DNA of 64,000 bases. It comes from an uncultured Verrucomicrobiae bacterium. Lineage in GTDB: Bacteria; Verrucomicrobiota; Verrucomicrobiia; Palsa-1439. Position 1 is the stretch's first letter, and every line of letters begins with the position of its first letter. Both the position numbers and the translations under genes were made by a program. The DNA is taken from contig CAWEWF010000004.1 of the NCBI GenBank assembly GCA_963812605.1, forward strand, positions 1-64,000, read 5' to 3'. The notes below the pieces were generated by a model that worked only from the letters and a program-made list of their open reading frames with translations, had not been told where the DNA came from and ran no database searches. Below, one piece after another: positions 29,203 to 51,379 of the stretch.

Positions 29203-29301
29203 CTACCGCCGCTTGCGGCTGGGGCTGAAGGAGTAACTTTTCATCGAACGGACGGCGCGGACGCTACGGCGGTGGTCGTAGATCGTCATTTCCTCGAACA
29301 G
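29203..29301 (-). repeat. Dead copy 1 of the DEAD-box helicase 3' end
   Basis: Encodes LFEEMTIYDHRRSVRAVRSMKSYSFSPSRKRR*; the live gene ends LFEEKQISGDRRSVRAVRTMKGYSFSPSRKRR*. Confidence 0.92.
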
Positions 29302-29341
29302 CACACTTGAAGCGGTAAGGGAAACCGAGTACAGTTTCGTC

Positions 29342-29515
29342 GTGAGACTAGCCGCAGTTCTGACACCAGACCCCAAGGGCGGTTTTGTTGCTTTCAATCC
29401 TGAAACCGGGACGACAACCCAGGGAGAAAGCATTGCGGAAGCGCTGGCCAATCTGAAAGAAGCCACCGAATTGTATTTGGAGTATGCCCTGACAGAGTAC
29501 TTTCCTCTCAGATAA
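29342..29515 (+). CDS. Orphan HicB-family antitoxin (57 aa, absent from the ORF track)
   Basis: MRLAAVLTPDPKGGFVAFNPETGTTTQGESIAEALANLKEATELYLE; TTGAAG-17-TACAGT promoter just upstream. Confidence 0.75.
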   Translation: MRLAAVLTPDPKGGFVAFNPETGTTTQGESIAEALANLKEATELYLEYALTEYFPLR

Positions 29516-29643
29516 ACAACGGTAATTACTGGTGAGTAACGGTCAGAAAGAGGGTTGCAAAAACGAGGCGACGATGGGCGATACTTTCCCATTTCGCGGA
29601 CAAAAAACAGGAAAAAGAGAGACTTTAGCGTCCGCCGGCGGAC

Positions 29644-29778
29644 ACTAGTGGTGCGACACGCTTCATTTGCAGGGTCGTTGGTAGGGACGGCTCGCCGAGC
29701 CGTCCGCGATTCCGCGCTGGCGCGGCGCGGTGGGCCACCGCGCTCTACCCATCGAATGAACTGTGTCGCAGCACTAGT
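29644..29778. mobile_element. MITE with 24-bp TIRs enclosing a GTAG REP doublet
   Basis: ACTAGTGGTGCGACACGCTTCATT ... AATGAACTGTGTCGCAGCACTAGT. Confidence 0.7.
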
Positions 29779-29993
29779 TTCACAAGAGAAGGTAACACGG
29801 CGGCAGTGATCGTTTTAAAATTGATCTCACCGTTTTTCGCTCGCAGAATCCTCCATCATAGTGCGTGGCAGCCATTTGAGGTGATAGTCGGATTTGGCAC
29901 ATTGTGCAGCCAGCCTGCCGACTTAATTCCTTTCTCAACCGAGTGGAAAGTACCTTGTCATCAAATGGGAAAGTTCCGCGTCGGCTTACACTA

Positions 29994-30093
29994 CTACCGT
30001 CGCTTGCGGCTCGGGCTGAAGAAATAACCTTTCATCGTGCGGACGGCGCAGATGCTGCGTGGGTCGTGGAGGTGGTTTTTCGAAGAACAGCGG
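29994..30093 (-). repeat. Dead copy 2 of the DEAD-box helicase 3' end
   Basis: PLFFEK/HLHDPRSICAVRTMKGYFFSPSRKRR* with a 1-bp frameshift. Confidence 0.9.
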
Positions 30094-30130
30094 GCTTGAA
30101 ATGATCCGCCGAACCGGTTAAGTTCTCAAC

Positions 30131-30316
30131 ATGTCCACGAAGGAAATCGCTCTGGCTTCCATTCAGGGGCTTCCCGACTCTGCCACTTGGGAAGAAATCG
30201 AGGAGCGCATCCGTTTTCTGGCAGCCATCGAGCGGGGACGCAAGGACATTCGGGAAGGCAAGGTTATTCCGCACGAGGACGTACGAAACCAGCTTGACCG
30301 ATGGCTTTCCAGGTAA
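30131..30316 (+). CDS. Type II TA antitoxin
   Basis: LPDSATWEEI..AIERG..IREGKVIPHE; overlaps the toxin gene. Confidence 0.8.
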   Translation: MSTKEIALASIQGLPDSATWEEIEERIRFLAAIERGRKDIREGKVIPHEDVRNQLDRWLSR

Positions 30317-30600
30317 TCTGGGCAGAGTCGGCGCTTGCCGATCTCGAACAAATCGTCCGTTACATCGCGGTCGAAGATCCCGGTGCCGCCAGACGACTTG
30401 GTCTGACGCTGATCAACCGTGCCGAAGAACTTGCCAGCTTCCCGCGTAAAGGCCGTATCGTACCGGAAAAAGGCGAGGAAGCCCTGCGCGAAATTATTGC
30501 GGTACCTTACCGGGTCGTCTATGAGGTTTTTGAATCTGACCACACGGTCTGCGTCCTTCGCATCTGGCATTCTGCCCGCGGTATCCCCGAGCTTAGATAG
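30301..30600 (+). CDS. RelE/ParE-family toxin
   Basis: VIWAESALADLEQI..FPRKGRIVPE..YRVVYEV..LRIWHSAR. Confidence 0.88.
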   Translation: MAFQVIWAESALADLEQIVRYIAVEDPGAARRLGLTLINRAEELASFPRKGRIVPEKGEEALREIIAVPYRVVYEVFESDHTVCVLRIWHSARGIPELR

Positions 30601-30664
30601 CGGGGTACCATCTATGCACGACCCAAACGGCGCGCCCGGTGGTCGCACCCTACCAACTATCTCC

Positions 30665-31888
30665 CTATCGTCGCTTCCGGCTCGGGCTAAAGGAATAACC
30701 CTTCATCGTGCGGACGGCGCGGACGCTGCGGCGGTCGCCGGAAATTTGTTTTTCTTCGAAAAGCGGAGTCAAAACGTAATCGAAGTTCTCCAGCTTGAGT
30801 TGCGGGATTTTCTGGCCGATGAAGCGTTCGATGGCGCGGAGGTATTCGAGTTCCTCGATGGTCACGAGCGTAAAGGCGTCGCCCACCTTCTGGGCGCGGC
30901 CTGTGCGCCCAATGCGATGGACGTAATCCTCGGGATGTTGCGGCACATCGTAGTTGATCACGTGCGTGACGCCCTCGACGTCGAGCCCGCGCGCGGCAAT
31001 GTCGGTCGCCACCATCACCTCGTATTTGCCGGACTTGAAGCCGTCGAGCGCCTCGACGCGTTCGCGTTGCGTGCGGTTCGAATGCAACGCTGCCACCGAG
31101 TGCCGCTCGGACCGCAACCGGGTCGCGATCTTGTCGGCACCGTGCTTGGTGCGCGAGAAGATGAGCACGCTATCGAAATTCGTGCGCTGCAGCAACGCGG
31201 AGAGCAATTGAAACTTCTGGCTGGTTGCGACAGGATAACAGGCGTGCGTGACCGTCTCGGCGGGCGAACGACTCGCGCCGATTTCGATCTTCTCGGGATT
31301 GTGCAGCACCCACGCGGCGAGTTGTCCGATCTCCGGTGGAACAGTCGCCGAGAACAGCAGCGTTTGCCGTTGCTTCGGACAACGGTCGATGATCTTGCGC
31401 ACGTCGGGCAGGAAACCCATGTCGAGCATGCGATCCACTTCGTCGAGCACCAACAAATTCACGTCGCGCAAATGCAGCGACCCCTGCCCCAACAGATCCA
31501 AGAGCCGCCCCGGCGTCGCGACCACAACGTCCACACCCTGTTGCAATTCCTGTTTCTGGTTGCCGTAACCGACCCCGCCGAAGATGACCGCCGTCTTCAT
31601 GTTGGTGAAGCGCCCATACTCGTGAAAAGCCGTCTCGACCTGCGCCGCCAACTCGCGTGTCGGCTCGAGCACGAGGCAACGGCATTTGCCGTGCGTCTTG
31701 AGCAGCGTAAGGATCGGCAGGGCGAACGCGGCGGTCTTGCCCGTGCCGGTTTGCGCCGCGCCGATAAGATCTTTGCCGGCCAGGATGACCGGGATGGCCC
31801 GTAGTTGAATCGGTGTCGGCACGACATAACCCGCGGCCTGCACGCCGCGCACGACCTCTTCAGAAAGTCCAAGTTGTTTGAAAGGCAT
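30665..31888 (-). CDS. DEAD/DEAH-box RNA helicase (RhlE-like)
   Basis: PTPIQ, AQTGTGKT, PTRELA, DEVD, SAT, HRIGRTGR. Confidence 0.95.
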   Translation of the reverse strand: MPFKQLGLSEEVVRGVQAAGYVVPTPIQLRAIPVILAGKDLIGAAQTGTGKTAAFALPILTLLKTHGKCRCLVLEPTRELAAQVETAFHEYGRFTNMKTAVIFGGVGYGNQKQELQQGVDVVVATPGRLLDLLGQGSLHLRDVNLLVLDEVDRMLDMGFLPDVRKIIDRCPKQRQTLLFSATVPPEIGQLAAWVLHNPEKIEIGASRSPAETVTHACYPVATSQKFQLLSALLQRTNFDSVLIFSRTKHGADKIATRLRSERHSVAALHSNRTQRERVEALDGFKSGKYEVMVATDIAARGLDVEGVTHVINYDVPQHPEDYVHRIGRTGRAQKVGDAFTLVTIEELEYLRAIERFIGQKIPQLKLENFDYVLTPLFEEKQISGDRRSVRAVRTMKGYSFSPSRKRR

Positions 31889-32032
31889 GACGTATGGTAG
31901 GTGCGGCTGGTCACTTTAACAAGACCCGATTTCGGCGTCTCCTTTGGTCTTCCGCGCCGGCAATACCACCGATCCCGGAAATGAAATGGAGGTTGATTGG
32001 CGCGAGGGATTGCCGTATAAGCGGGGCGCTTT

Positions 32033-32506
32033 ATGAGGCATACCCTTTCAGTCCTGGTCGAGAATAAATTCGGCGTGTTGACCCGCATCTCGGGGCTGTT
32101 CAGCGGCCGCGGGTTCAACATCGACACGCTCAACGTCGCCCCGACGCAGGACCCGACGCAGTCCCGCATGACCATCGTGGTCAAGGGCGATGACACCGTG
32201 CTCGAGCAGGTCACCAAACAGCTCAATAAACTCGTCAACGTCATCAAGGTGCAGGATTTCCCGGAAGGCGAATATGTCGACCGTGAGCTGGTACTGATCA
32301 AGGTCAATGCGGACAACAAGACGCGTTCCGAGATCATGCAGATCTGCGATATTTTCCGCGCGAAGATCGTCGACGTGGCGCACAAGGCCCTGACCATCGA
32401 GATCACGGGCAACGAATCGAAGGTCAGCAAGTTCTTGGACTTGATGGAACCGTTCGGCGTCCGCGACATCACGCGCACCGGCAAAGTGGCGATGCCCAGG
32501 AAATGA
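32033..32506 (+). CDS. ilvN: Acetolactate synthase small subunit
   Basis: VLVENKFGVLTRISGLFSGRGFNI, ACT domain. Confidence 0.93.
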   Translation: MRHTLSVLVENKFGVLTRISGLFSGRGFNIDTLNVAPTQDPTQSRMTIVVKGDDTVLEQVTKQLNKLVNVIKVQDFPEGEYVDRELVLIKVNADNKTRSEIMQICDIFRAKIVDVAHKALTIEITGNESKVSKFLDLMEPFGVRDITRTGKVAMPRK

Positions 32507-32566
32507 CACCGCCCCGCGGTGTCATCCTGAGCGAAGCAAAGGATTTCACACAAGTAAGGAAAAATC

Positions 32567-33592: not shown

Positions 33593-33602
33593 GGAGGTTT
33601 CC

Positions 33603-33863
33603 ATGCGCAAGCGGATCAACATCATCGCGGTCGCCGTCGTGCTGGCGATTCTCAGCTTCGCCTACGCGCGCTACGACTATACCAACAATAACAGCACGAC
33701 CTTGACGAATCCCTTCGGCAACCACGAGAGCACCACCGTTGCCAATCCCTTTATGGACAAGTCGCTCTTTGGGGACTGGATGAAGAAGGAAGTGACTTTC
33801 TCGATGGTTGTACCCGCCGCGCTCATCGCCGTCGGGTTGGGGCTCGCCATCGGCAAGAAGTAG
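33603..33863 (+). CDS. Small membrane or secreted hypothetical protein
   Basis: GGAGG RBS, signal peptide, C-terminal TM. Confidence 0.6.
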   Translation: MRKRINIIAVAVVLAILSFAYARYDYTNNNSTTLTNPFGNHESTTVANPFMDKSLFGDWMKKEVTFSMVVPAALIAVGLGLAIGKK

Positions 33864-33900
33864 GCTCTTGCGGGTCAGGTCGTGGATCGGACGGGAGCGC

Positions 33901-34380
33901 ATGCGCAAAATTAACACGAAGGACATCGCTGAGGTGTCCTGGTCGTCGCCCAAGGGAAAGTTCGTCGGCGCTGGCAAGGAGGTCTCGGAGGAATTGGGCC
34001 GCAAACCGCAATCGACCGACCTCAAGGAGCGGCACCCTTTCGATGTCGAAATCTGCCGCATCCCGCCGGGCAAGACCCCCTACCCCTATCACTCCCACAG
34101 CGCGCAATGGGAGTTTTACCACGTGATCTCCGGCAAAGGCATCGTCCGCCACAAGGACGGAACGACCGCCATTGAAACCGGCGACGCTTTCCTCTTCCAC
34201 CCCGGCGAACCCCATCAGATTACCAATGACGGCTCCGAAGATCTCATCCTCTACGTCGTCGCGGACAATCCGATTGGCGAATCCTATTACTACCCCGACA
34301 GCAGGAAATGGAGCGTCGCTTCACCCGAGCGCCGAATCATCCGCTCCGATGCCCTCGACTACTACGACGGCGAGGAGTGA
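33901..34380 (+). CDS. Cupin-domain protein
   Basis: PYHSHSAQWEFYHVISG, PGEPHQ, YYPDS..DYYDGEE. Confidence 0.88.
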   Translation: MRKINTKDIAEVSWSSPKGKFVGAGKEVSEELGRKPQSTDLKERHPFDVEICRIPPGKTPYPYHSHSAQWEFYHVISGKGIVRHKDGTTAIETGDAFLFHPGEPHQITNDGSEDLILYVVADNPIGESYYYPDSRKWSVASPERRIIRSDALDYYDGEE

Positions 34381-34396
34381 GCCCGTCCCAACTTCT

Positions 34397-35707
34397 TCAG
34401 CGATACGCGATCGCAGCTTCCAGCGCCGGGTCGCGTCCCGCAAGCACGTTCTGCCACGAAGTCGGCGTCGCAATATCCGGCAGACGTGAAGGAGGGTCAT
34501 CCCCGGTGGTAATCTTGAAGTGTTTGGTGGAATAACGCACCTGCAACTTGGAATTCGGCAGTTCCAATACGCGAACGTCACCATAACCGTTGGGTTTGCC
34601 CCCGGTGGGTTCGCCAATCAGGATGGCCTGGAAATGGAACCGCTTCGCATCGTCGGCAAAACTGTTATGAAATTGCTCCGCCACCCATTCCCCGGAGGAA
34701 AAGGTCGACGGTCCAATCAGCACAAAGAGATGGCCGGTCGCATTAATGGCGGGATTGGATGAGACGGCTTCCAGCAACGGCCGCACAACGTCAGAGTTCC
34801 CTCCTCCGTTATAACGGACATCGATCACCAAACGGCCCACCGAGTGAGCGCCAATAAATGCAAACGTCTCTTTTACGAATTCCTGGAAAGACTGTTTCGG
34901 ATCGTCTTCGCACACGTTGTATTGAAGGAACAATGTCTGCGAATCCGGCAAATACTCGCGCCAGTAAAACGCTGTTGGATTACGGCGACTGAGCCGCGTC
35001 GGCAGCTCCAGGGCCTCTGTGACCGTGACTCGTCCGTTTGCGTTTGTGCTCGCGCTCCAGTCCGATGGCGAGACAGAAAGAGACCAGACATTGGTTCCCG
35101 CATCCGCAAAGGCAAGTTCGAGAGATCCATTCGACGCGGCCTGCAGGTGCTGCAATAATTCAGCCGACATCATGTACTCGGGACTTTGTTCCCGCAGCCA
35201 GGTTTCATTTTCATGTGCAATGTAGGGGGCAAGATTTGTCAGCAGTTGCTCCGGCGTCATTTTACCGATTCGAACCACGCGCTTCCCCAACGCCCGCCGA
35301 TACTCGGGCGCAGCAGCAATCACATAGCATCCGTCGGAATACCAGCGCAGCCACAATGGATACCGCTGAAAGGCGAGCGCGCCGGAGGTCGGCAGCGCGA
35401 GTCGCGTGTGCGAAACTCCGGCGGCCGCAACCAACCGTAGCAGGCGAATCACGATCTCCGTGTCGGAAAGTTGTGCGACAGAGTTTTTGATCTGCGCGAT
35501 CTCGCTCTGGAACGTTTCCTTCGGAACAAGCTTGTAAAAGTCCTTGTGCTTCTCCGGCAGGTTCGTCCCCAGGAAATCGAGGTCCTGACGCCAGTGCTCT
35601 TCGCGAACAGCGTTGTTCGTGTACGTTTGCGCTTGAATCAGTGGTCCCGAAACGCCAACGGCCGCAGAGACAACCAGAGGAATTAACTTTATGAATCTGG
35701 TTTGCAT
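34397..35707 (-). CDS. Secreted S41-family peptidase-like protein
   Basis: Signal peptide, IDVRYNGGG, TFSSG, GEPTGG, DPALE. Confidence 0.8.
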   Translation of the reverse strand: MQTRFIKLIPLVVSAAVGVSGPLIQAQTYTNNAVREEHWRQDLDFLGTNLPEKHKDFYKLVPKETFQSEIAQIKNSVAQLSDTEIVIRLLRLVAAAGVSHTRLALPTSGALAFQRYPLWLRWYSDGCYVIAAAPEYRRALGKRVVRIGKMTPEQLLTNLAPYIAHENETWLREQSPEYMMSAELLQHLQAASNGSLELAFADAGTNVWSLSVSPSDWSASTNANGRVTVTEALELPTRLSRRNPTAFYWREYLPDSQTLFLQYNVCEDDPKQSFQEFVKETFAFIGAHSVGRLVIDVRYNGGGNSDVVRPLLEAVSSNPAINATGHLFVLIGPSTFSSGEWVAEQFHNSFADDAKRFHFQAILIGEPTGGKPNGYGDVRVLELPNSKLQVRYSTKHFKITTGDDPPSRLPDIATPTSWQNVLAGRDPALEAAIAYR

Positions 35708-35802
35708 AAGCCAAGTGCCTCCGAATTAGCCGGGCGAGTGCGGCGATTCAAGACTAATCTGGGAAACGGCTTGCACTTCCTTTGCTCTGCTGACAGCAAC
35801 AA

Positions 35803-35844
35803 ATCCGCTCCAACGCCCTCGACTATTACGACGGCGAAGAGTGA
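35803..35844 (+). repeat. Dead copy of the cupin gene 3' end
   Basis: 38/42 nt identical to 34339-34380; RSNALDYYDGEE* versus RSDALDYYDGEE*. Confidence 0.92.
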
Positions 35845-36048
35845 ACAGGCTCCGTAGTTTATCACTAATTGGAGGGCGAGCCTCTCGGCAAGCCGCACCT
35901 CTCGATAATTTCCTCTCCCCATTTCCAAGCCGATTGTAGGGCGAGCGCGTCGCTTGCCGTCATTCGCGTCGCTCTTTTATGCTTTCCTCGCGGTTCCGTC
36001 AGGGGTTTAATTACAAGGAGGTATTTGGATCACCATCCAGTGATATTT

Positions 36049-36579
36049 ATGAAAGCTCCCAAGCCAGAGAAACCAAATGGTGCACCCGAAGGCACAATCT
36101 GGTTTGGTGGCCCCATCGCATGGTTTAGCATCGACTTGAGGATCTTCGGTGAACATCTGAATCCCGAGGAGGTCAGCGCCATTTTGGGATGCCAGCCGAC
36201 CAGTTTCGAGCGTAAGGGACAGCCTGTTTTGCGACCCGATGGAACTGTCGCTCGCATTGGAAGGACCGGTGCGTGGCGCCTGCAATTAAGTCCAGCCGAC
36301 ACTGACGAATGGGACTGCGGCGAGGCCATGATGGTGTTGATGTCGCGTTTGCCGGCGAAGGTAGAGATATGGAAGAGCCTGACCAAGCGGTTCAGGGTCG
36401 ATTTCTCCGTCGCGTTATCGATGGAGTCGCGGAATAAGGGCTTCTGCTTGTCCCCAGAGATCATGAGCTATCTTGGCGAGCGAGGTATTAACGTGGGGTT
36501 TGACGTTTATTACGAAGACGAAGCTAAGGCCGAACCATCCGCTGGAGGAAACACTACTCTTCCCCCTTCCTCAGCATGA
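36049..36579 (+). CDS. DUF4279-like protein
   Basis: LRIFGEHLNPEEVSAILGCQPT..G.W.L pattern. Confidence 0.7.
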   Translation: MKAPKPEKPNGAPEGTIWFGGPIAWFSIDLRIFGEHLNPEEVSAILGCQPTSFERKGQPVLRPDGTVARIGRTGAWRLQLSPADTDEWDCGEAMMVLMSRLPAKVEIWKSLTKRFRVDFSVALSMESRNKGFCLSPEIMSYLGERGINVGFDVYYEDEAKAEPSAGGNTTLPPSSA

Positions 36580-43704: not shown

Positions 43705-43721
43705 GTCCTTTTATCCATGAC

Positions 43722-44658: not shown

Positions 44659-44673
44659 ACGCACACAGTCAAG

Positions 44674-44768
44674 CCCCTCACCCTAACCCTCTCCCTCAAG
44701 GGGAGAGGGGACCGGCGAGCAGACAGCAGTTTCCTCTCCCCTCCGGGGGAGAGGATCAAGGTGAGGGG
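44674..44768. repeat. CCCCTCACCCTAACCCTCTCCC-type palindromic repeat doublet
   Basis: CCCTCTCCC..GGGAGAGGG hairpins in inverted arrangement. Confidence 0.7.
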
Positions 44769-44788
44769 GGCGGAGCGGTTCGTTGCAC

Positions 44789-45193
44789 ATGAAACTCTCT
44801 CAACAACTCCTGCATCAAATCCGCCAACACCTCGAAGCGGGGTATCCGAACGAGGCTTGCGGCGTGATGCTGGGGCAAAATGGGATCGTCAGCGAAGTGG
44901 TTTCCGCGGACAATCAGCGCACCGATAGCGCCCGCAATAGGTATCTCATCGATCCGCTGATCTACCTGAAGATCGAGCGGGAGGCCGACAAGCGCGGGTT
45001 GCAAGTGCTCGGCATTTATCATTCGCATCCCGATGTCGCGGCCCGGCCATCGCAGTTTGACCTCGATCACGCGTGGCCCGATTTTTCGTACCTGATCATT
45101 TCGGTCGTCAAAGGCAAAGCGATGGAATCGAATTCCTGGCGGTTGCGGGACGACCGTTCGGCCTTCGACCAGGAGAACATCGAAGTTTTATAA
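44789..45193 (+). CDS. JAB/Mov34 (Mec-like) metallopeptidase
   Basis: YPNEACG, YHSHPD..PS..D. Confidence 0.92.
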   Translation: MKLSQQLLHQIRQHLEAGYPNEACGVMLGQNGIVSEVVSADNQRTDSARNRYLIDPLIYLKIEREADKRGLQVLGIYHSHPDVAARPSQFDLDHAWPDFSYLIISVVKGKAMESNSWRLRDDRSAFDQENIEVL

Positions 45194-45210
45194 AGGCAAC
45201 AGCCGTCTCA

Positions 45211-46269
45211 ATGAGATCTATGGGCAACCACGCGTCCGGTTTTGATTGGGCTGACGGGCTGCACCGATTCAAATTATTCAAACGGCGTTTTGGTCACGGC
45301 CGGGTGCCTGCATACTGGGAAGACGACCCTATTCTGGCCTGGTGGGCAGCCAGGCTGCGCACGCGTTTGGATCGCTTGACACAGGAACAGATCAGGCAAT
45401 TGTATGGCCTAGGTTTTTATTTTGGGTCGGTGCTGACGGCGTGGGTGGGACGTTACTTGGATTTGGCCAAATACCGGACCAGGAACGGTCATTGCAACGT
45501 GACCGAAAGAGTAGACATGTCCCTAGGGCGCTGGGTGCAACATCAACGTGCCCTCAAACATCGCCTGGATGCGCAACGTCTCAAACTGCTAAACCGCCTC
45601 GGATTCGACTGGTCTCCCATCAACACGCTTTGGGGAGAGAGGGTGGCAGAGCTACACACATTTAAGCAAGGACATGGCCATTGCCGCGTGCCACACCATT
45701 ACCCGGAGTATCCCCATCTGGGAATTTGGGTGAGCAACGTGCGCAGGAAGCGCGATAAGCTTTCTCCGCTACGCCGCCGCCAACTGGATCGGATGGGCCT
45801 AAACTGGGCGCCGCTCGCCTCCTCGTGGGAGGCGCGGGTTCAGGAAGCGGTAATGTGGCGAAAGCTTCACGGCAACTGCCAACCACCGTTCGAGTCTCCA
45901 TTAGGGCGCTGGCTGGCCAAGCGACGGGCAGCCTTTGCGGCCGGGAAGCTCAGTCAGCAGCGCAAGCGGCGATTGGAAAAGCTGGGGGTTGAGCTTAGAC
46001 CATTCCAGTCAAGGTGGGAAAGGCGGTTTACAGAACTCAAAGCCTACAGGGCGCGCCATGGTCACTGCAATGTGCCCCGATCCTGCCCAAAGAATCCTGC
46101 TTTGGGTTTTTGGGTAAGCAAGCAACGCTACTTCAAAGATCGTCTCACTCGCAAGCAGATCGTCCGCCTCAACCAACTCGGCTTCCGCTGGCGGATCCGC
46201 CCGCCGAGACCGCCGCGCGGCCGTCACAGTTCGACCTCGGTCACGCGTGGCCCGATTTTTCGTACCTGA
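45211..46269 (+). CDS. Helicase-associated (HA) repeat protein
   Basis: Repeated W...HGHCxVP...LGxWVxxQR...LxxLGFxW units; its stop lies inside the JAB tail copy. Confidence 0.8.
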   Translation: MRSMGNHASGFDWADGLHRFKLFKRRFGHGRVPAYWEDDPILAWWAARLRTRLDRLTQEQIRQLYGLGFYFGSVLTAWVGRYLDLAKYRTRNGHCNVTERVDMSLGRWVQHQRALKHRLDAQRLKLLNRLGFDWSPINTLWGERVAELHTFKQGHGHCRVPHHYPEYPHLGIWVSNVRRKRDKLSPLRRRQLDRMGLNWAPLASSWEARVQEAVMWRKLHGNCQPPFESPLGRWLAKRRAAFAAGKLSQQRKRRLEKLGVELRPFQSRWERRFTELKAYRARHGHCNVPRSCPKNPALGFWVSKQRYFKDRLTRKQIVRLNQLGFRWRIRPPRPPRGRHSSTSVTRGPIFRT

Positions 46270-46370
46270 TCATTTCAGTCGTCAAGGGCAAGGCTGTGGA
46301 GTCGAATTCCTGGCGGCTGCGGGACGACCGTTCGGCGTTCGACCAAGAGGCTGTTGAAATTCTCGCGTAG
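46212..46370 (+). repeat. Dead copy 1 of the JAB gene 3' end
   Basis: AARPSQFDLGHAWPDFSYLIISVVKGKAVESNSWRLRDDRSAFDQEAVEILA* versus live 45038-45193. Confidence 0.95.
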
Positions 46371-46408
46371 ATTATCACCAGCGCCTACGTAGATCCGTGC
46401 GGCGATTA

Positions 46409-46635
46409 TCAACGCAGATTCCGGGAAAATTCCTCCGGGGACAGTCGGATATCCTTGATAATCTGTCGGAGAAGAAACGGCGAAACGTCTCGACCCGCAT
46501 GAAAGGGAACAGTCGTTCCGCGACCGTCAGCATGACGATACTGCTTGTGCGAACCGCGCTGACGGACCTCGACGAACCCAAGTCTTTCAGGACCTTTTCC
46601 ACCTCACGCGCCTTCAGTACCGGGAGCCGGGCCAT
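46409..46635 (-). CDS. HicA-family toxin, 1-bp frameshift near 46577
   Basis: Reconstructed LG/FVEVRQRGSHKQYRHADGRGTTVPFH. Confidence 0.82.
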
Positions 46636-46641
46636 GCATGC

Positions 46642-46848
46642 CTAGACGCTGATGGCTTGCGTTCCGATGAACTCAGCTTCGAGCTGCGGCTCGCCGTCCT
46701 CCAGAAGCATCCCAACAACCTCCTTCAGATTGTCACGCAACTCTTCAAGTGTCGCGCCCTGAGAGTGTGCACCGGGAAACCCGGGAATATATCCCACGAA
46801 CAGGTTCGTCTCCGGGTCACGTTCGACAACGGCGGTGAAGTTTCTCAT
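46642..46848 (-). CDS. HicB-family antitoxin
   Basis: FTAVVERD..PGFPGAHSQGATLEEL; TTGACG-17-TACTTT promoter, leaderless start. Confidence 0.88.
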   Translation of the reverse strand: MRNFTAVVERDPETNLFVGYIPGFPGAHSQGATLEELRDNLKEVVGMLLEDGEPQLEAEFIGTQAISV

Positions 46849-46899
46849 GCCCAGAAAGTACCGTTCCACAAGGGAAACGTCAACCCCACCGCCAAGTTA

Positions 46900-46928
46900 A
46901 AGAGGCTGTTGAAATTCTGGGGCGATAG
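46900..46928 (+). repeat. Probable dead copy 2 of the JAB gene 3' end
   Basis: AAGAGGCTGTTGAAATTCT identical to 46345-46363; reads EAVEILGR*. Confidence 0.65.
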
Positions 46929-46959
46929 GCTAGACTGGGTCTTGCGGGTAATAGCGAAT

Positions 46960-47020
46960 TGTAGGGCAAGCGGCCCGCTTGCCACTTATTAATAGCGCCA
47001 ACCGGGCCGGTTGGCCTACA
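46960..47020. repeat. GTAG REP doublet
   Basis: TGTAGGGCAAGCGGCCCGCTTGCC...GCCAACCGGGCCGGTTGGCCTACA. Confidence 0.7.
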
Positions 47021-47049
47021 AATCGTGTTTGCAAAAAATGGAGAGAACG

Positions 47050-48537
47050 ATGGCTATTAAAGTCACAATTCCAACGGCCTTGCGTCGCTTTGCCAACGGA
47101 CAGACGACGGTCGAGGTGGCCGGCGTAACGATCAACGAGGTGCTCGGCAACCTGACCGCAGAGCATGCCCAGTTGCGGCCCCATCTCTACAGCGAGGACG
47201 GCAAGCTGCGGAATTTCGTGCGCGTGTACGTCAATGACGAGGACATTCGCGCCCGGGGCGACAATGCGCCCGTCAACGAAGGCGACGAGATTTCCATCGT
47301 GCCGTCGATTGCGGGTGGCAACCTTGCCAAACTTGAGCCGATCATCAAAGATCGCGCGAAGCTGACCAATGACGATATCAAGCGGTATTCGCGACACCTG
47401 ATCCTGCCGGAAGTCGGCGTCGAGGGCCAGGAGCGGCTCAAGGCGGCGAAAGTATTGCTCATCGGCTCGGGTGGACTTGGTTCGCCGATCGCGCTATATC
47501 TGACGGCGGCGGGAATTGGGACGATTGGGATGGTCGAGTTCGACACGGTCGATTTCAGCAATCTCCAGCGGCAGATCATTCATTTCACGGGCGACGTGGG
47601 GAAACACAAGCTCCAGAGCGCCGAGGAAAAACTCAAGGCGATCAACCCGAACCTCAATTTCATCCCCCACCCCGTCAAGCTGACGAGCGAGAACGCGCTC
47701 GACATTATCAAGGACTATGACCTCGTCCTCGACGGCACGGACAACTTCCCGACGCGTTATTTGGTCAATGACGCGTGCGTGATGCTCAAAAAGCCGAATG
47801 TGTACGGCTCGATCTTCCGCTGGGAAGGCATGGCCAGCGTGTTCGCGCCGCACCTGGGTGGTCCCTGCTATCGTTGCTGGTATCCCGAACCGCCGCCGCC
47901 GGGGCTCGTTCCGAGTTGCGCGGAGGGCGGCGTGCTCGGCGTCATCTGCGGCATCATTGGCAACATCCAGGCGAACGAAGCCGTCAAGCTCATCATCGGC
48001 AAGGGCAAACCGCTCATGGGCCGGTTGCTGCGGTTTGACGCGATGGACATGAGCTTCCGCGAGTACAAAATTCCGCGCGACCCGAATTGTCCCGTGTGCG
48101 GCAAGAATCCGACCGTAACCGAACTAATTGACTACAACCAATTCTGCGGCATCGGCCGCGGAGAGGACGAAGGTTCCTCAGGAGATTCCATCGTGGAAAA
48201 AGTTGACACGGGCCTCGGCCCCGACGATATCAGCGTCGAGACGCTCAAACAAATGCGCGACCGCAAAGACGATTTTGTCCTCGTCGATGTCCGCAATCCC
48301 GACGAGTTCGAGATTTGCGTCATCGACGGTTCGGTGAAACTTCCCTTACCGGAGTTGCCGCAGCGGTTTCAGGAACTGCCGAAGGACAAGCTCGTGGTCC
48401 TGCACTGCAAGTCCGGTGGCCGTAGCGGCCGCGCGGTGAAATTCCTCAAGACGCAGGGCTACAGTAAGGTCAAGAACGTCGCCGGCGGCATCAATGCCTG
48501 GGCCGAACGCATCGACCCGGACGTGCCGCAGTATTAA
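47050..48537 (+). CDS. moeB: MoaD/CysO-MoeB(ThiF)-rhodanese fusion (MoeZ-like)
   Basis: Ubiquitin-like domain ending VPSIAGG; RYSRHL, GSGGLG, SNLQRQ, CYRC, CPVC; rhodanese HCKSGGRS. Confidence 0.93.
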   Translation: MAIKVTIPTALRRFANGQTTVEVAGVTINEVLGNLTAEHAQLRPHLYSEDGKLRNFVRVYVNDEDIRARGDNAPVNEGDEISIVPSIAGGNLAKLEPIIKDRAKLTNDDIKRYSRHLILPEVGVEGQERLKAAKVLLIGSGGLGSPIALYLTAAGIGTIGMVEFDTVDFSNLQRQIIHFTGDVGKHKLQSAEEKLKAINPNLNFIPHPVKLTSENALDIIKDYDLVLDGTDNFPTRYLVNDACVMLKKPNVYGSIFRWEGMASVFAPHLGGPCYRCWYPEPPPPGLVPSCAEGGVLGVICGIIGNIQANEAVKLIIGKGKPLMGRLLRFDAMDMSFREYKIPRDPNCPVCGKNPTVTELIDYNQFCGIGRGEDEGSSGDSIVEKVDTGLGPDDISVETLKQMRDRKDDFVLVDVRNPDEFEICVIDGSVKLPLPELPQRFQELPKDKLVVLHCKSGGRSGRAVKFLKTQGYSKVKNVAGGINAWAERIDPDVPQY

Positions 48538-48619
48538 GCGGCGGTTCAGGGTTCTCGGTTCTAGGTTGTAGAATCCTACGACGTACTTCCGGTCAATGGC
48601 CTCTGGGAGCGCGGACGAT

Positions 48620-49303
48620 TTAATCTCTAGCTGTTTTGATCAATTTCTTAAGCCACCATGGTGACCACAATGTCCAATTGGAACGCCCAAGAAGAAGCCC
48701 CGTGATGATGAAAATCATCCAGTTCGCGTAAAACGCCCACCACGAAAGATCCAGCCGATCGCTGAGGAAAAACCCTGTATCGCTTCTGTGAAACACAAAC
48801 AGACGGACCAACTTCACCATGATTGTGCCAATTAAACCAAGGCTGCTGATCCATAACAAAGTCCATTTGGTATGCCAACGGGCAAAGCCAATAACAAGGC
48901 CACTGATGGTAAAAGTCGTAAAAGTAACGTAATTCGGAAGCCAGACCGCCCGCGACGGATGTGAAAGCGAATCCAAGCCGCTCGTATGCCAGATGAATGA
49001 CGTGCCCAAGCTCAACATCGGTGTCATCACCAAACCGAGGACGCCCGTCCAAAACAACGACCATTGGGGTAATACACACGCCATTCCGCAGATTTTCTTG
49101 AACTCGACCTTGAGTTCGTCGGCATGACCCATTCGCTGAACCGAATTCTCAAAGGCTTGTGGCGGATTTGTCCCCGCTTTCATCTGAAGCTCAATTTCTT
49201 CCCGCAAATGAATTTCCAGTTCTTCCAGCGGCACGGGCGTTTTGATTCCGGCGGCGAGCATTTGTTTTCGCCAATCAGCAATTGATTGTTCGAGATCAAA
49301 CAT
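48620..49303 (-). CDS. Permease-prefix-domain-1 membrane protein
   Basis: MFDLEQSIADWR..ELEIHLREE plus TM segments; downstream of PadR. Confidence 0.75.
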   Translation of the reverse strand: MFDLEQSIADWRKQMLAAGIKTPVPLEELEIHLREEIELQMKAGTNPPQAFENSVQRMGHADELKVEFKKICGMACVLPQWSLFWTGVLGLVMTPMLSLGTSFIWHTSGLDSLSHPSRAVWLPNYVTFTTFTISGLVIGFARWHTKWTLLWISSLGLIGTIMVKLVRLFVFHRSDTGFFLSDRLDLSWWAFYANWMIFIITGLLLGRSNWTLWSPWWLKKLIKTARD

Positions 49304-49628
49304 ATTGCTCCTTTTTCAAGCCGGCCAAAACGGAATGCACCAGCGACCATTGTTCGTGATGCTTGGCCATCGCCGTTTTGCCGTCCTTTTTGAGCAAGTA
49401 ATATTTCCGCTTCCGCCCGGTCTCGCTTTCCGCCCATCGCGACTTGATCAAGCCCCGGTGTTCCATGCGGTGCAGCACCGGGTACAGCATGCCGTCCGTC
49501 CAGTTTAGTTTGCCATCCGAGCGCTCTTTGACTTCTTGAATGATGGCGTAACCGTAACTCTCGCCCTTGGCGAGCAGCGACAAAATCAGCGGTTCAGCCG
49601 ATGCGGCGACCAGTTCTTTGCGAATCAT
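49296..49628 (-). CDS. PadR-family transcriptional regulator
   Basis: ESYGYAI, GMLYPVLHRME, RKRKYY. Confidence 0.92.
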   Translation of the reverse strand: MIRKELVAASAEPLILSLLAKGESYGYAIIQEVKERSDGKLNWTDGMLYPVLHRMEHRGLIKSRWAESETGRKRKYYLLKKDGKTAMAKHHEQWSLVHSVLAGLKKEQYV

Positions 49629-49634
49629 AGAGAC

Positions 49635-49663
49635 ACGATACATAGACGTTATATGTATGTCAA
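49635..49663 (-). promoter_or_regulatory. Sigma70 promoter (leaderless) with an overlapping putative PadR operator
   Basis: TTGACA-17-TATCGT, 6 nt before ATG; ATACATA-N7-TATGTAT palindrome. Confidence 0.7.
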
Positions 49664-49676
49664 GCGGGAAAAATGA

Positions 49677-49718
49677 GGCTCGGTGAAACTCCTGTTACCG
49701 GAGTTGCCACAGTACTAG
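49677..49718 (+). repeat. Dead moeB 3'-end copy A (internally deleted)
   Basis: GSVKLLLPELPQY* joins live 48328-48363 (GSVKLPLPELPQ) to the terminal PQY*. Confidence 0.85.
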
Positions 49719-49760
49719 AAGTCGGCAGGTTGTGTAGCGGCCAGCGACACCGCTCCGCGA

Positions 49761-50393
49761 CTACACGGGCTGCGGGGTGTAGCGAAGATACGGCTTCACT
49801 TTGCGAACGCCTTTGGGAAATAATTTCTCCGCATCCGTGTCGGACACCGCTGTCACGACGATGCAGTCCTGCCCTTGTTTCCAGTCCGCCGGCGTGGCCA
49901 GCTTGTGACGAGCCGTTAATTGCAGCGAATCGATCACCCGCAGGATTTCGGCAAAATTGCGGCCCGTGCTGGCCGGGTACGTCAGGGTCAATTTGATCTT
50001 CTTGTCGGGGCCAATGACAAACACCGACCGCACCGTGGCCTTGTCGTCCGCGTTCGGATGAATCATGTCATACGCCGTCGCGACCTGGCGTTTTTCATCC
50101 GCGATCACCGGGAAGTTCATCGTGCAGGCTTGCGTTTCATTGATGTCCTCGATCCAGTCGTGGTGCTTTTCCAGCGGGTCCACGCTGACCGCCATCACCT
50201 TGACATTCCGCTTTTCAAATTCGGTCTTGATCTTGGCCACCGTTCCGAGTTCGGTGGTGCAAACGGGAGTGAAATCGGCCGGATGCGAGAACAGGACGCC
50301 CCAGGAATCGCCCAGCCATCGGTGAAACTCAATCATCCCTTCGGTGGTGGGGGCTATAAAATTGGGAGCAACATCGCCTAATCGTAATGCCAT
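49761..50393 (-). CDS. 1-Cys peroxiredoxin (Prx6)
   Basis: FSHPADFTPVCTTE, YPASTGRNF, ATPADW. Confidence 0.95.
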   Translation of the reverse strand: MALRLGDVAPNFIAPTTEGMIEFHRWLGDSWGVLFSHPADFTPVCTTELGTVAKIKTEFEKRNVKVMAVSVDPLEKHHDWIEDINETQACTMNFPVIADEKRQVATAYDMIHPNADDKATVRSVFVIGPDKKIKLTLTYPASTGRNFAEILRVIDSLQLTARHKLATPADWKQGQDCIVVTAVSDTDAEKLFPKGVRKVKPYLRYTPQPV

Positions 50394-50500
50394 AGTGGTA
50401 CCCTTCTCTTGTCGGACATTTCTGGATTGCTTACGTCCCGCGACTCTCGCTCGCCACATAGTATCCCCTCGCACAGTGCTTTCAAGTTTTTTGTGGGCCA

Positions 50501-50553
50501 CCGAAAGACATGCTCGTGGTCCTGCACTGCCATTCTGGTGACCGCAGTACTAG
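50501..50553 (+). repeat. Dead moeB 3'-end copy B (internally deleted)
   Basis: PKDMLVVLHCHSGDRS versus live PKDKLVVLHCKSGGRS (48379-48426); ends CCGCAGTACTAG. Confidence 0.85.
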
Positions 50554-50592
50554 GGCACGGTTTTGGGTTCGCGGTTCACGGTTCACGATCAT

Positions 50593-50621
50593 TGTAGCCG
50601 CGAATCGCATTCGCGGCTACA
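50593..50621. repeat. Single GTAG REP hairpin preceded by GGTTCAC-like heptamers
   Basis: TGTAGCCGCGAATCGCATTCGCGGCTACA. Confidence 0.75.
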
Positions 50622-50726
50622 AACGGCGGCTGGCTCGTCAATGGCCGTGTCCAGATGCGCCCGCATGTTCCTGCCACGATTCTGTGCGCTTGCCGGCATC
50701 TGGCCGCGTTGGCATACTCCGCGTCA

Positions 50727-51305
50727 ATGGCTTCGGAGAAAGACTTGGCGATTTCGGTTGAACGGCTCGGCGGTCTCATCTACGAGATTCGCGGCCAGAA
50801 GGTGATGCTTGACCGCGATTTGGCGATCGTCTATGGCGTCGCAACCCGAGATCTGAATAAGGCCGTGAAACGCAACCGCGACCGGTTCCCGGCGGATTTC
50901 GCATTTCAGCTTACCCGGCAAGAGGTTGCAGACTTGAAGTTCCAAATTGGAACATCAAGTTCGCAGCACGGTGGCCGGCGCAAACCGCCATGGGCGTTCA
51001 CCGAGCACGGCGCGATCATGGCCGCCAACGTGCTCAACAGCCCACGCGCCGCGCAGATGAGCGTCTTCGTAGTCCGCGCGTTCGTGAAGATGCGCGCGGT
51101 GCTATCAGACAACCGGGAACTCGCCGGCAAACTCGCTGCCTTGGAGAAGGAGCTTAAGGACCGCCTCGGCGTTCACGAAGCCGCCATCGTCACGATTCTC
51201 CAGCGCGTCATGGACATCATCGACCCGCCCGCCTTGCCGGAGCCGCCGAAGAAGGGCATCGGATTTCAGGTGAAGCAAGCCAAAACACGCTATCTGGTCC
51301 GCTAG
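50727..51305 (+). CDS. ORF6N-domain DNA-binding protein
   Basis: IRGQKVMLDRDLA..AVKRN..RFPADF..AFTEHG. Confidence 0.9.
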   Translation: MASEKDLAISVERLGGLIYEIRGQKVMLDRDLAIVYGVATRDLNKAVKRNRDRFPADFAFQLTRQEVADLKFQIGTSSSQHGGRRKPPWAFTEHGAIMAANVLNSPRAAQMSVFVVRAFVKMRAVLSDNRELAGKLAALEKELKDRLGVHEAAIVTILQRVMDIIDPPALPEPPKKGIGFQVKQAKTRYLVR

Positions 51306-51322
51306 CACGACTCGGGGCAAGT

Positions 51323-51379
51323 ACCGGGGGAATCGACGCCTGGGCCGAACGCATCGACCCGAACGTCCCGCAGTACTGA
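51323..51379 (+). repeat. Dead moeB 3'-end copy C
   Basis: 48/57 nt identical to 48481-48537; TGGIDAWAERIDPNVPQY*. Confidence 0.92.

Follow-up and report, generated by a model that had tools for sequence, protein, structure and literature searches.

Stacked accessory units separated by displaced gene 3′ ends in a Verrucomicrobiae genome: probable footprints of integrase-free acquisition from congeners

Site-specific integration into gene ends classically replaces the 3′ end of the gene with one carried by the element and displaces the original, and tandem integration of this kind (genomic-island accretion) leaves arrays of partial tRNA or gene ends. Homology-facilitated illegitimate recombination has reportedly been described in transformable bacteria by de Vries and Wackernagel in 2002, Prudhomme et al. 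in 2002 and Meier and Wackernagel in 2003, and Rhs C-terminal displacement is said to have been described by Jackson et al. in 2009. RM genes have been found as ‘insertions with long target duplication’, which have no mobility gene, are bounded by direct target repeats of >30 bp and correspond to an empty site in relatives; in the portions of that study drawn on here, the repeats frequently extend across a translation stop or start, leaving the target gene intact, and the species are mostly naturally competent (Furuta, Abe and Kobayashi 2010, PMC2853133). In T6SS effector-immunity arrays, the 3′ part of the gene gives way to an incoming module and the old end is shifted outward together with its neighbour, giving an ordered array, and the sections of that report used here propose homology-facilitated illegitimate recombination as the route, with no integrase (Kirchberger et al. 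2017, PMC5361080). RM long target duplications and Rhs/T6SS displacement arrays are close published precedents for the arrays that we describe.

We analysed a 64,000-nt stretch of DNA (the window) from an uncultured Verrucomicrobiae soil bacterium (genome G000), in which four unrelated genes had been predicted to be followed by diverged ‘dead’ copies of their own tails with cargo between them. A repeat search and a self-BLAST of the window independently located such copies behind the helicase, cupin, JAB and moeB fusion genes where the original prediction had placed them, with small corrections (Table 1). Three pieces do lie downstream of moeB, but they represent different parts of the tail rather than three copies of it, and stop codons vary as claimed at JAB and moeB only, all three helicase copies (the live tail, T1 and T2) ending in TAG. 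Pfam recognises the ParE, Peptidase_S41, HA, HicB-like, PadR, AhpC/1-Cys Prx and ORF6N cargo, but the scan gave no match for the ParE partner ORF (30131-30316) or for the 86-aa ORF at 46375-46635 supposed to be HicA. The ‘HicB’ of the helicase array is sub-threshold in Pfam (DUF7387, 1e-5; HicB_lk, 0.029), although its protein is conserved in three relatives (77-82% amino-acid identity in G011, G014 and G012). The MITE-like element at 29644-29780 also has other copies. At the JAB locus, the last 6 codons of the live gene come from the insert, the junction lying 18 nt inside the gene, and in an alignment with 13 relatives the live C-terminus is aberrant while that of the dead copy is genus-typical. 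The HA ORF (45073-46269) extends into the dead JAB tail in a different frame; D2 with its spacer matches the JAB end plus spacer of G012 at 77% over 56 nt, and piece B carries an internal deletion of ~100 nt. The true start of the moeB fusion is probably the ATG at 47050, similarity to relatives beginning at ~47040.

Table 1. Anchors, cargo units and displaced tails in the window
Feature	Coordinates	Strand	Remarks
DEAD-box helicase, anchor	30665-31888	-	live tail 30665-30764; reference copy, repeat family D1; Pfam DEAD 4.6e-50, Helicase_C 6.8e-33
Cargo unit 1, innermost, helicase array	30094-30664	+	ParE toxin 30301-30600 (Pfam ParE_toxin 3.6e-21); small upstream ORF 30131-30316
Dead helicase tail T1	29994-30093	-	88% identity to live tail over 73 nt; differences per codon position 2/2/5
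Cargo unit 2, helicase array	29303-29993	+	HicB-like small gene 29342-29515; 135-bp MITE-like element 29644-29780
Dead helicase tail T2, outermost	29203-29302	-	78% identity to live tail over 100 nt; differences per codon position 4/4/14
Cupin gene, anchor	33808-34380	+	live tail 34339-34380; Pfam Cupin_2 4e-16
Peptidase S41-domain protein, cupin cargo	34397-35707	-	Pfam Peptidase_S41 7e-8
Dead cupin tail	35803-35844	+	90% identity to last 42 nt of cupin
Prok-JAB peptidase, anchor	44783-45193	+	live tail 45021-45175; Pfam Prok-JAB 1.4e-25
HA-domain repeat protein, JAB cargo	45176-46194	+	Pfam HA 1.2e-71, 5 repeats
Dead JAB tail D1	46195-46369 (repeat 46195-46349)	+	89% identity over 139 nt; own TAG stop; differences per codon position from live tail 2/1/12
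HicB-like antitoxin cargo	46642-46869 within 46375-46869	-	Pfam UPF0150 1.2e-6, HicB_lk 7.8e-5
Dead JAB tail D2	46900-46954	+	~20 nt (46900-46919), then ancestral JAB-moeB spacer
ThiS-ThiF/MoeB-rhodanese fusion (moeB), anchor	47011-48537	+	Pfam ThiF 5.2e-79, Rhodanese 1.4e-20, ThiS 1.1e-12
PadR regulator (49296-49643) and 227-aa ORF, innermost moeB cargo	48620-49643	-	Pfam PadR 2.3e-23
Dead moeB piece A	49677-49712	+	corresponds to 48328-48363; 86% identity over 36 nt
1-Cys peroxiredoxin, moeB cargo	49761-50501	-	Pfam AhpC-TSA 8.4e-31
Dead moeB piece B	50501-50583	+	corresponds to 48379-48425 plus 48526-48567; blastn, tblastx
ORF6N-domain protein, moeB cargo	50655-51305	+	Pfam ORF6N 6.7e-32
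Dead moeB piece C	51324-51391	+	corresponds to 48482-48550; final 57 nt of gene plus 13 nt; 86% identity
DUF1905/OmdA gene, further insert	51416-52030	+	Pfam; no dead tail downstream
Ancestral downstream neighbour of moeB	52857-54509	+	~70-170 nt behind moeB in G001, G016

The substitution pattern supports the proposal that dead tails are former functional alleles. Third codon positions hold 181 of the 258 live-dead differences (70%), in excess (p = 2.5e-17) of the ~44% given by a rough calculation for one constrained and one neutral copy, with 81% as the baseline between moeB orthologues. Codon changes comprise 157 synonymous and 72 non-synonymous cases, with a single in-frame stop in 24 ungapped pairs. 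Along the repeats, the differences are distributed evenly (56/44/60/54/52) as far as both junctions, and the substitution spectrum is symmetric. At the 3′ end, the median identical run is 7 nt, where the mean spacing to be expected is 11 nt. Since a third-position excess is combined with an even spread to both junctions, live and dead copies are alleles with a history as coding sequence in different lineages and not decayed local duplications. At JAB and PheA, approximately equal distances separate the live tail, the dead tail and the corresponding tails in the nearest relatives.

Comparison with genus relatives agrees with the view that the units are insertions, short or empty sites being found at the corresponding positions. 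The gap between JAB and moeB is 46-84 nt in 13 of 14 relatives versus 1.86 kb in G000, that between moeB and its downstream neighbour is 70-170 nt in G001 and G016 versus 4.3 kb, and 7 relatives have an empty helicase site (45-270 nt). The idea of an ordered record of acquisitions also fits, as outer units are shared with relatives and inner units (PadR, ParE, HA) occur in G000 only. The unit of ORF6N and piece C, as well as T2, is common to G012 with identical junctions: ORF6N there lies directly behind moeB (90% identity), with a dead tail again 18 nt further on, and its T2 copy (87% identical) follows the same end of cargo unit 2. G012 has the outer helicase unit only and lacks cargo unit 1, a relative of which (77% DNA identity) is present at the same site in G013. 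The peroxiredoxin and piece B unit is common to G006, where it stands behind moeB (91% identity) with the same junction and an identical left boundary of piece B. The PadR unit is at the moeB locus of no relative, the S41 cargo protein has no counterpart in 17 genus relatives, and no donor was found: the best relative of the HA cargo is 41% identical among 400 class genomes, with none >39% in a metagenome scan. The cupin anchor is itself accessory in the genus: among the relatives, G006 and G014 alone carry it here, most lack it at this position, and in G002, G005 and G007 it sits on a different contig. Genes 89-94% identical to the DUF1905/OmdA insert occur in 7 relatives, away from the moeB contig. 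Dead tails of moeB were found in G000, G006, G012 and G005 and at one further locus, and those of PheA in G000 and at least 4 of 16 relatives; in five species, the PheA dead tails measure 186, 90, 72, 91, 81 and 61 nt and have differing left boundaries. In G006, a further unit adjoins PheA, and a dead tail precedes the G000-like cargo. The dead tail is missing from 4 of the 6 genomes that carry helicase-site inserts. G012 contains the same TA cargo (91% identical) behind a different gene and without a repeat, so cargo also moves between loci by a route outside the model proposed below.

After curation, 25 unrelated genes in the 4.17 Mb genome are followed by one or more copies of their own 3′ end, which are 35-233 nt long, 78-99% identical with a median of 88%, and 275-2773 nt away. 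Of 35 repeat rows, 28 were kept and 7 removed, these being tails of paralogues or a C-terminal motif of 25 nt that genes share. Among the 10 anchors scanned outside the window are PheA, LpxC-FabZ, a dehydrogenase of isocitrate type, an ABC transporter and a ComM-like protein; one of the ten has no Pfam match. The enrichment at 3′ ends anticipated for the whole genome was recovered: in 34 of 654 short direct-repeat pairs one copy abuts a gene stop and its partner lies downstream, compared with 8, 9 and 16 for the other three direct-repeat geometries and 2-5 per class for inverted pairs, and a symmetric definition gave 44 tails with a partner downstream versus 19, 16 and 6. At least one mirror-image ‘dead head’ exists. 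The 3′ bias exceeds the expectation of a neutral recombination process, and a selection argument is needed in addition. The cargo is rich in TA-type pairs, comprising ParE, HicA/HicB, DUF433+DUF5615/PIN (twice), DUF4926(+DUF6883), DUF2442+DUF4160 and Gp49+HTH, among which we take the DUF433+DUF5615/PIN, DUF4926(+DUF6883) and DUF2442+DUF4160 pairs to be toxin-antitoxin systems. Orientation in the window is mixed, with ParE, S41, HicB, PadR and Prx opposite to their anchors and HA and ORF6N co-directional. As predicted, neither integrase nor transposase accompanies the cargo: contig C4 has no matches to PF00589, PF00239, PF01797, PF00665 or PF01609, the scanned cargo ORFs have no recombinase matches in Pfam, and no candidate enzyme gene recurs in the scanned units. 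Terminal inverted repeats were not found, and k-mer sharing between junctions is no greater than in shuffles, with no common att motif. ComEC and DprA are present but little informative, because they also match in 10-11 of 14 control genomes.

These arrays resemble island accretion in that displaced 3′ ends delimit stacked units behind a conserved gene, but accretion requires an integrase as well as a fixed att core, neither of which was found when looked for here. The one-sided anchor and illegitimate distal joint of homology-facilitated illegitimate recombination would account for allelic tails, variable boundaries and the absence of a motif, although that process was reportedly demonstrated by experiment, at low frequency and in cultured species. 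As with the RM insertions, in the parts of that study considered here, a small addictive unit without a mobility gene is bounded by target direct repeats and corresponds to an empty site in relatives (PMC2853133). In contrast to the published cases (44/46 and 47/47 identical positions), the repeats here are 78-99% identical with coding-type substitutions and hence represent two alleles, not a duplication; moreover, the cargo consists of TA pairs and assorted genes instead of RM systems, the units form stacked arrays, and a single genome has at least 25 affected genes. The likeness to T6SS/Rhs arrays, as far as the sections used here describe them, is that the 3′ part is replaced and the old end displaced outward in an ordered, integrase-free manner. 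There, however, variable toxin domains with immunity genes make up the displaced ends, and diversity itself is under selection, whereas here ordinary housekeeping genes serve as anchors, their tails code for the same protein sequence, and cargo and anchor are unrelated.

The recombination model originally suggested, in which incoming DNA from relatives displaces the old tail, is supported, and we lean towards homology-anchored, illegitimately resolved acquisition from congeners. A donor fragment would comprise the end of a conserved gene and whatever adjoins it downstream in the donor; homologous recombination within the conserved gene would anchor it, and an illegitimate joint would connect its far end to a point within the resident 3′ end or, in a variant that would leave no footprint, within the spacer. 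The product would be a live gene with one tail allele, then cargo, then the stranded second allele leading into the original downstream DNA, and repeats of the process would stack units with the newest adjoining the gene. In addition to this recombination route, we infer the route of DNA entry and a survivor bias, and either copy may be the imported one.

The same product (allelic direct repeats flanking cargo, with no integrase) could arise if a tail segment and its cargo were looped out by recombination between flanking repeats, reached a related cell as a circle and entered through a single RecA crossover in the 3′ end (Campbell-type insertion-duplication). Each unit would then be a host-recombination-dependent cassette addressed to one gene, in keeping with the repeated hits on PheA and moeB across species, and a comparable life cycle was proposed for long-repeat-flanked RM units in the portions of the RM study used here (PMC2853133). 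A circulating circle would nevertheless keep a fixed boundary, while the PheA left boundaries vary between species, and the dead tail is missing at most of the helicase-site inserts; we regard this route as unlikely. Public contigs contain no circular or empty-site junctions, at a depth of only 2-4x that is too shallow to tell. It is quite unlikely, in our view, that dedicated machinery of an unknown kind places cargo at gene 3′ ends, even though the 3′-end excess is strong, the 25 genes hit include 4 in a 22-kb part of the window and the pattern extends across the genus. The ‘candidate new system’ of the original prediction is not needed, given footprint-free inserts at the same helicase site, varying boundaries with junctions that share no motif, mixed cargo orientation in the window, a mirror-image dead head, no candidate enzyme gene recurring in the scanned units, the repeat-free TA cargo behind a different gene in G012 and the precedents published in the parts of PMC2853133 and PMC5361080 drawn on here.

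In-situ insertion accompanied by a long duplication of the target, giving identical repeats at first, followed by exchange of the live gene for diverged alleles through homologous recombination, would share its geometry with the published RM cases, which in the text considered here lack mobility genes and have long, variable repeats across stop sites (PMC2853133). An allele swap from a cargo-free donor must end inside the live tail, and the cargo-proximal part of the repeat would consequently match the dead copy; instead, the differences run evenly to the junction (the 7 nt versus 11 nt given above), and the median of 88% contrasts with the near-identity of the published repeats, making this very unlikely. 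Decayed site-specific elements stacked at att sites overlapping gene 3′ ends, their integrase lost or acting in trans, would reproduce the classical outcome of gene-end integration, and ~10 tyrosine and 2 serine recombinase genes lie elsewhere in the genome. Set against this are the lack of a recombinase gene on contig C4, the 25 unrelated targets, which would demand as many specificities, the absence of a common core, with boundaries that vary even at one gene (PheA), and units of 0.3-2.8 kb without an element backbone, and we find it highly improbable. That strain variants of a mixed population were joined in series during assembly is scarcely credible: the assembly is of metagenome type (15 contigs, 90% complete) and the public data covering the genome are low-depth soil contigs only, but the same junctions recur in separately assembled relatives (ORF6N-tail and T2 in G012, Prx-tail in G006), and short public contigs, which may derive from the source sample, span 51084-51430 (0 mismatches), 46291-46466 (0) and 35709-35987 (2).

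Under homology-anchored, illegitimately resolved acquisition, the observed arrays would be a survivor set biased toward addiction modules and diverged repeats: repeats diverged by ~10% would be poor substrates for deletion, and TA pairs would penalise their own loss. The arrays are probably the footprints of repeated, integrase-free uptake of small accessory units from diverged donors of the same genus.

Repeat searching and sensitive self-BLAST of the window (C4:1-64000 of a 4.17-Mb genome, G000, in 15 contigs at 58% G+C) recovered the gene-end repeats that the original prediction had described behind four genes, namely those encoding a DEAD-box helicase, a cupin, a Prok-JAB peptidase (JAB) and a ThiS-MoeB-rhodanese fusion (moeB). 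Soil metagenomes are the only public runs that contain window sequence. We refer to the gene heading such an array as the anchor, to its own end as the live tail, to the stranded, diverged copy as the dead tail and to the unit in between as cargo. The three copies predicted behind moeB are present as three pieces, but these are successive, non-overlapping parts of the tail that start at different positions; piece B carries an internal deletion of ~100 nt, after which it picks up again with the stop codon and the 30 nt that follow. The dead JAB copy retains the genus-typical C-terminus, the live JAB ends with six foreign codons from the insert, and a second JAB tail (20 nt) at 46900 runs on into the ancestral JAB-moeB spacer. 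Pfam bore out the names given to the anchors and to most of the cargo, although not those of HicA and the ParE partner. The 'HicB' of the helicase array (29342-29515) falls below the Pfam threshold, yet three relatives conserve it; it is the real gene at this position, on the strand opposite to a 129-aa ORF (29203-29592) that appeared to fuse cargo to T2, the outer of the two dead helicase tails, and whose frame is not conserved, with stops in relatives. For the moeB fusion, the longest ORF opens with TTG at 47011 and relatives show similarity from about 47040; GGAGAG-ATG at 47050 is probably the real start. The DUF1905/OmdA gene of the moeB array is 89-94% identical to genes off the moeB contig in seven relatives and no second copy is among G000's own matches listed in the search, so that it resembles a core-like gene that was moved into the array. 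The two tandem direct repeats are probably repeated domains within a gene.

Gene-end repeats and other sequence features of the window and of the G000 genome (positions without a contig are those of the window)
Feature	Position	Description	Basis
DEAD-box helicase		last 73-100 nt recurs twice downstream	repeat search and self-BLAST
Cupin gene		one copy of last 42 nt, 1.4 kb downstream	repeat search and self-BLAST
JAB gene		139-155-nt end copy, 1.0 kb downstream	repeat search and self-BLAST
ThiS-MoeB-rhodanese gene		three end pieces, 1.1-2.8 kb downstream	repeat search and self-BLAST
ComM-like dead head	G000:C6:202082-202363 and 204467-204752	first 234 coding nt and 48 upstream nt, 83% identity	
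DUF1905/OmdA gene	51416-52030	in moeB array	
MITE-like element	29644-29780	135 bp, roughly 16-bp terminal inverted repeats (ACTAGTG.TGCGACAC)	
REP-like hairpin family	5801-5858, 35928-35958, 46955-47025, 50592-50622, 52705-52774	stems TTGTAG...CTACAA	
Dispersed repeat	44675-44775	~100-130 nt, many genus copies	
Dispersed repeat	L037 1276-1407 (G000:C5:260275-260406)	~100-130 nt, many genus copies	
Tandem direct repeat	59927-60431	255 nt, 84% identical	
Tandem direct repeat	61094-61717	~300 nt, 67% identical	
Split short-chain dehydrogenase	G000:C8:33871-34712	cargo gene in two ORFs (adh_short, then C-terminal adh_short_C2)	
Proteins with shared C-terminal motif	G000:C6:214083-221623, C7:12248-12364, C10:21698-21722	several large proteins, ..QRFYRV..P	

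The whole genome was self-BLASTed in 24-kb windows, with genes called from codon usage as learned on the long ORFs of the genome, a crude procedure that misses small foreign genes. Among 654 direct, non-tandem repeat pairs of at most 400 nt, 34 placed one copy directly at a called gene's stop and the other downstream, compared with 8 for gene tails with the partner upstream, 9 for gene heads with the partner upstream and 16 for heads with the partner downstream; a symmetric, looser definition gave 44 stop/downstream pairs versus 19, 16 and 6. The expected enrichment at 3′ ends over control geometries thus holds genome-wide. Inverted pairs numbered 2-5 per geometry class, and 'internal' pairs, mostly paralogues, ~180 per direction. 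Curation of 35 rows (33 unique plus two extra moeB pieces) removed seven in which the partner was another gene's tail or a 25-nt shared C-terminal motif, leaving 28 rows at 25 genes, with repeats of 35-233 nt (median 76), identities of 78-98.7% (median 88%) and live-to-dead spacings of 275-2773 nt (median 794). Four of the 25 anchors fall within a 22-kb stretch of the window. Ten anchors scanned outside the window are unrelated ordinary genes, nine with a Pfam match, and include genes for chorismate mutase/prephenate dehydratase (PheA), LpxC-FabZ, cytochrome c peroxidase, an isocitrate-type dehydrogenase, an OYE oxidoreductase, an ABC transporter, a ComM-like ATPase and a Zn-dehydrogenase. A 678-nt candidate (C6 216581/221128) and the 25-nt case on C10 proved to be paralogous C-terminal motifs ('FYRV..P') and not dead tails; the motif shared by several large proteins, possibly a sorting signal, accounts for false 'tail repeat' matches. 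At least one clean mirror image exists, a 'dead head' 2.1 kb upstream of the ComM-like gene, with coding differences of 2/1/23 by codon position, a bias absent from the other control rows. Two genes lie between its copies, and the same gene has a dead tail too. A gene-call-free scan of control taxa (~0.42 Mb each; noisy and small) returned 4 raw matches for 37 Verrucomicrobiia and 10 for 39 other moeB loci, mostly dispersed hairpin repeats of 23-38 nt and one real case.

In 24 ungapped clean pairs of live and dead tails, 258 differences fell 48, 29 and 181 at first, second and third positions (70% third), with 157 synonymous and 72 non-synonymous codon changes and an in-frame stop in only one dead tail; by way of baseline, 81% of the differences between moeB and its orthologues in four relatives are at third positions. 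If a constrained copy is paired with an equally old one that decays freely, a rough calculation puts ~44% of the differences at third positions, a model that the data reject (p = 2.5e-17). Differences are even along the repeats (56/44/60/54/52 by fifths) and reach both junctions, and the spectrum of substitutions, in which transitions predominate, is symmetric (A>G 51, G>A 39, C>T 41, T>C 37). These results agree with the prediction that dead tails are former functional alleles, and to judge from them the live and dead copies are alleles from different lineages, not decayed duplicates. Since two copies in one genome cannot both be the working gene end, one of each pair must have evolved in that role in another lineage, at roughly sister-species distance. 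In their identities to the tails of relatives, the live and dead tails of JAB and PheA form a star, and the helicase tails behave alike.

Comparison with 17 other species-level genomes of the genus revealed empty but otherwise collinear sites at three of the arrays. The JAB-moeB gap is 46-84 nt in 13 of the 14 relatives examined and 1.86 kb in G000; the remaining relative, G014, has a gap of ~1.7 kb without a dead tail. From moeB to the gene at 52857 the distance is 70-170 nt in G001 and G016, 0.5-3.7 kb in others and 4.3 kb in G000, and the site downstream of the helicase is empty (45-270 nt) in seven relatives. Occupied sites retain parts of the G000 arrangement. Downstream of moeB, G012 carries ORF6N (90% identity) and then a dead tail, joined by the 18-nt junction known from G000; G006 carries 1.2 kb of sequence, the peroxiredoxin gene (91% identity) and a dead tail whose left boundary matches that of G000; and G005 carries both a dead tail and a relative of ORF6N. 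Of 34 additional moeB loci from Verrucomicrobiia whose downstream sequence was long enough, 3 also have a dead tail. At the helicase, G012 has only the outer unit and T2 in common with G000, while G008, G016, G013 and G014 carry inserts of 1.0-2.75 kb with no detectable dead tail, that of G013 containing a ParDE relative. Dead tails of PheA measure 90 nt in G006, 72 and 91 in G014, 81 in G002, 61 in G011 and 186 in G000; in G006 a new unit adjoins the gene and the G000-like cargo sits behind the dead tail. The fragmented relative G004, in which the ABC-transporter unit was ambiguous, was left out. It follows that outer units are the older ones, common to relatives, and inner units private, that the boundaries of dead tails are not fixed and that the footprint itself is optional. 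The junctions kept in separately assembled genomes argue against an assembly artefact, as do short public contigs bridging three junctions, though these perhaps come from the source sample; public coverage consists of low-depth Logan contigs only (best share of words 0.43), which showed neither joints nor long pieces and whose gaps are uninformative.

The cargo is enriched in two-gene addiction-type modules, including ParE, HicA/HicB, DUF433 with DUF5615/PIN (twice), DUF4926 with DUF6883, DUF2442 with DUF4160, and Gp49 with HTH; the DUF pairs we take to be toxin-antitoxin (TA) systems. The rest comprises assorted single genes and several small ORFs without matches. One of the TA units has a 91% identical counterpart in G012, behind another gene and with no repeat, and HicB-like and ORF6N genes are dispersed across relatives, which indicates that cargo also moves between loci. 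Searches for a donor of the HA cargo found none, yielding only four loci at 29-39% identity in a metagenome scan and a best match of 41% in 400 genomes of the class. The split of the cargo short-chain dehydrogenase suggests a frameshifted, decaying gene. Several kinds of dispersed element also occur. The MITE-like element occurs 12 times in the genome at near-full length and 88-100% identity, always between called genes and in three instances in or adjoining a cargo unit; one of the REP-like hairpins interrupts the ancestral JAB-moeB spacer; 4-5 Y1_Tnp genes, possibly RAYT-like, are present in the genome, none of them on contig C4; and the dispersed repeat in L037 makes up much of one 448-nt 'cargo' without a good ORF.

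As had been claimed, no integrase, transposase or shared att motif accompanies the arrays. Pfam found no tyrosine or serine recombinase on contig C4 (genome-wide, 12 matches to PF00589 and two to PF00239) and no Y1, rve or DDE_Tnp_1 transposase there; the cargo ORFs scanned contained no recombinase or transposase domain, and no reverse transcriptase was seen among them. Self-BLAST detected no long-range inverted repeats around the window units, the junctions of 29 cases shared no k-mers beyond shuffle expectation, and no fixed att core was found across the copies at a gene, as PheA tails vary in length and moeB pieces start apart. The arrays therefore differ from site-specific integrative elements and accretion arrays, which would have a nearby tyrosine or serine recombinase and a fixed att core, and from integrons, given that the contig has no integrase, the junctions share no k-mers and cargo lies inconsistently on both strands. 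Unlike diversity-generating retroelements, they show no adenine-specific mismatches in their symmetric spectrum, and unlike loci of polymorphic-toxin C-terminal displacement, they have housekeeping anchors whose tails encode nearly the same peptide rather than toxin domains with immunity genes. A close likeness is to insertion with long target duplication (Kobayashi group), for which PMC2853133 describes cases mostly from competent species, without mobility genes and with nearly identical repeats that often span stop or start sites. Here too the insert is missing from the collinear empty site in relatives and is flanked, without mobility genes, by direct repeats >30 bp (35-233 nt); the repeats are, however, not near-identical, with a median of 88% and 70% of differences at third positions. 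Kirchberger et al. (PMC5361080) ascribe T6SS effector-immunity arrays to sequential displacement via homology-facilitated illegitimate recombination (HFIR) and cite the same idea for Rhs loci. Keyword searches of open-access main texts turned up no account of such allelic tails stranded behind housekeeping anchors together with TA cargo; the supplementary cases of PMC2853133 (figures 7a-m) may include diverged repeats.

The pattern is real and well delimited. Its simplest account is the recombination model put forward originally, which is supported by the allelic tails, the empty sites and the contrast between common outer and private inner units. A fragment from a congener would anchor by homology in the conserved gene, bringing the donor's gene end and its downstream neighbour; the far end would be resolved by an illegitimate joint within the resident gene end, which would be left stranded, and repeated events would stack units outward. 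HFIR predicts a one-sided anchor and a variable joint, and the left boundaries do vary and lack a motif; the anchor crossover was not located for JAB and PheA. ComEC and DprA are present in the genome, but as common genes they are uninformative on DNA uptake.

Alternatively, circles bearing a gene tail might insert behind the gene in a Campbell-type variant, or a dedicated factor might place units behind genes. The bias to 3′ ends, the short tails and the abundance of TA modules could be taken for the work of such a device, but they can be explained by selection and survival, because a stranded promoter-bearing head or an interrupted gene would be costly and because diverged repeats and addictive cargo would resist deletion. 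The variable boundaries, the optional footprint and the lack of a shared motif do not support the label of a new system. We regard as rather unlikely the broader proposal that gene-addressed cassettes circulate between the species of this peat and soil genus, each carrying the 3′ piece of a conserved gene and inserted either by an unrecognised factor or by nothing more than host recombination, so as to form integron-like ordered arrays without integrase or att site and a general route for the spread of TA systems.

The pattern's chief value is as a tally of gene flow without integrases. The movement of TA pairs and single-gene units between chromosomes without mobility genes is poorly understood, and the footprints capture such an event directly, in that they keep the anchor gene, the stranded allele and the sequence in which units were acquired. 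With them, gene flow between species of an uncultured soil lineage could be counted using genome sequence alone. Should their density prove unusual, this would be a sign of very active acquisition through recombination in these bacteria; should it prove common, dead gene tails would be a cheap and overlooked marker of integrase-free insertion in any genome.
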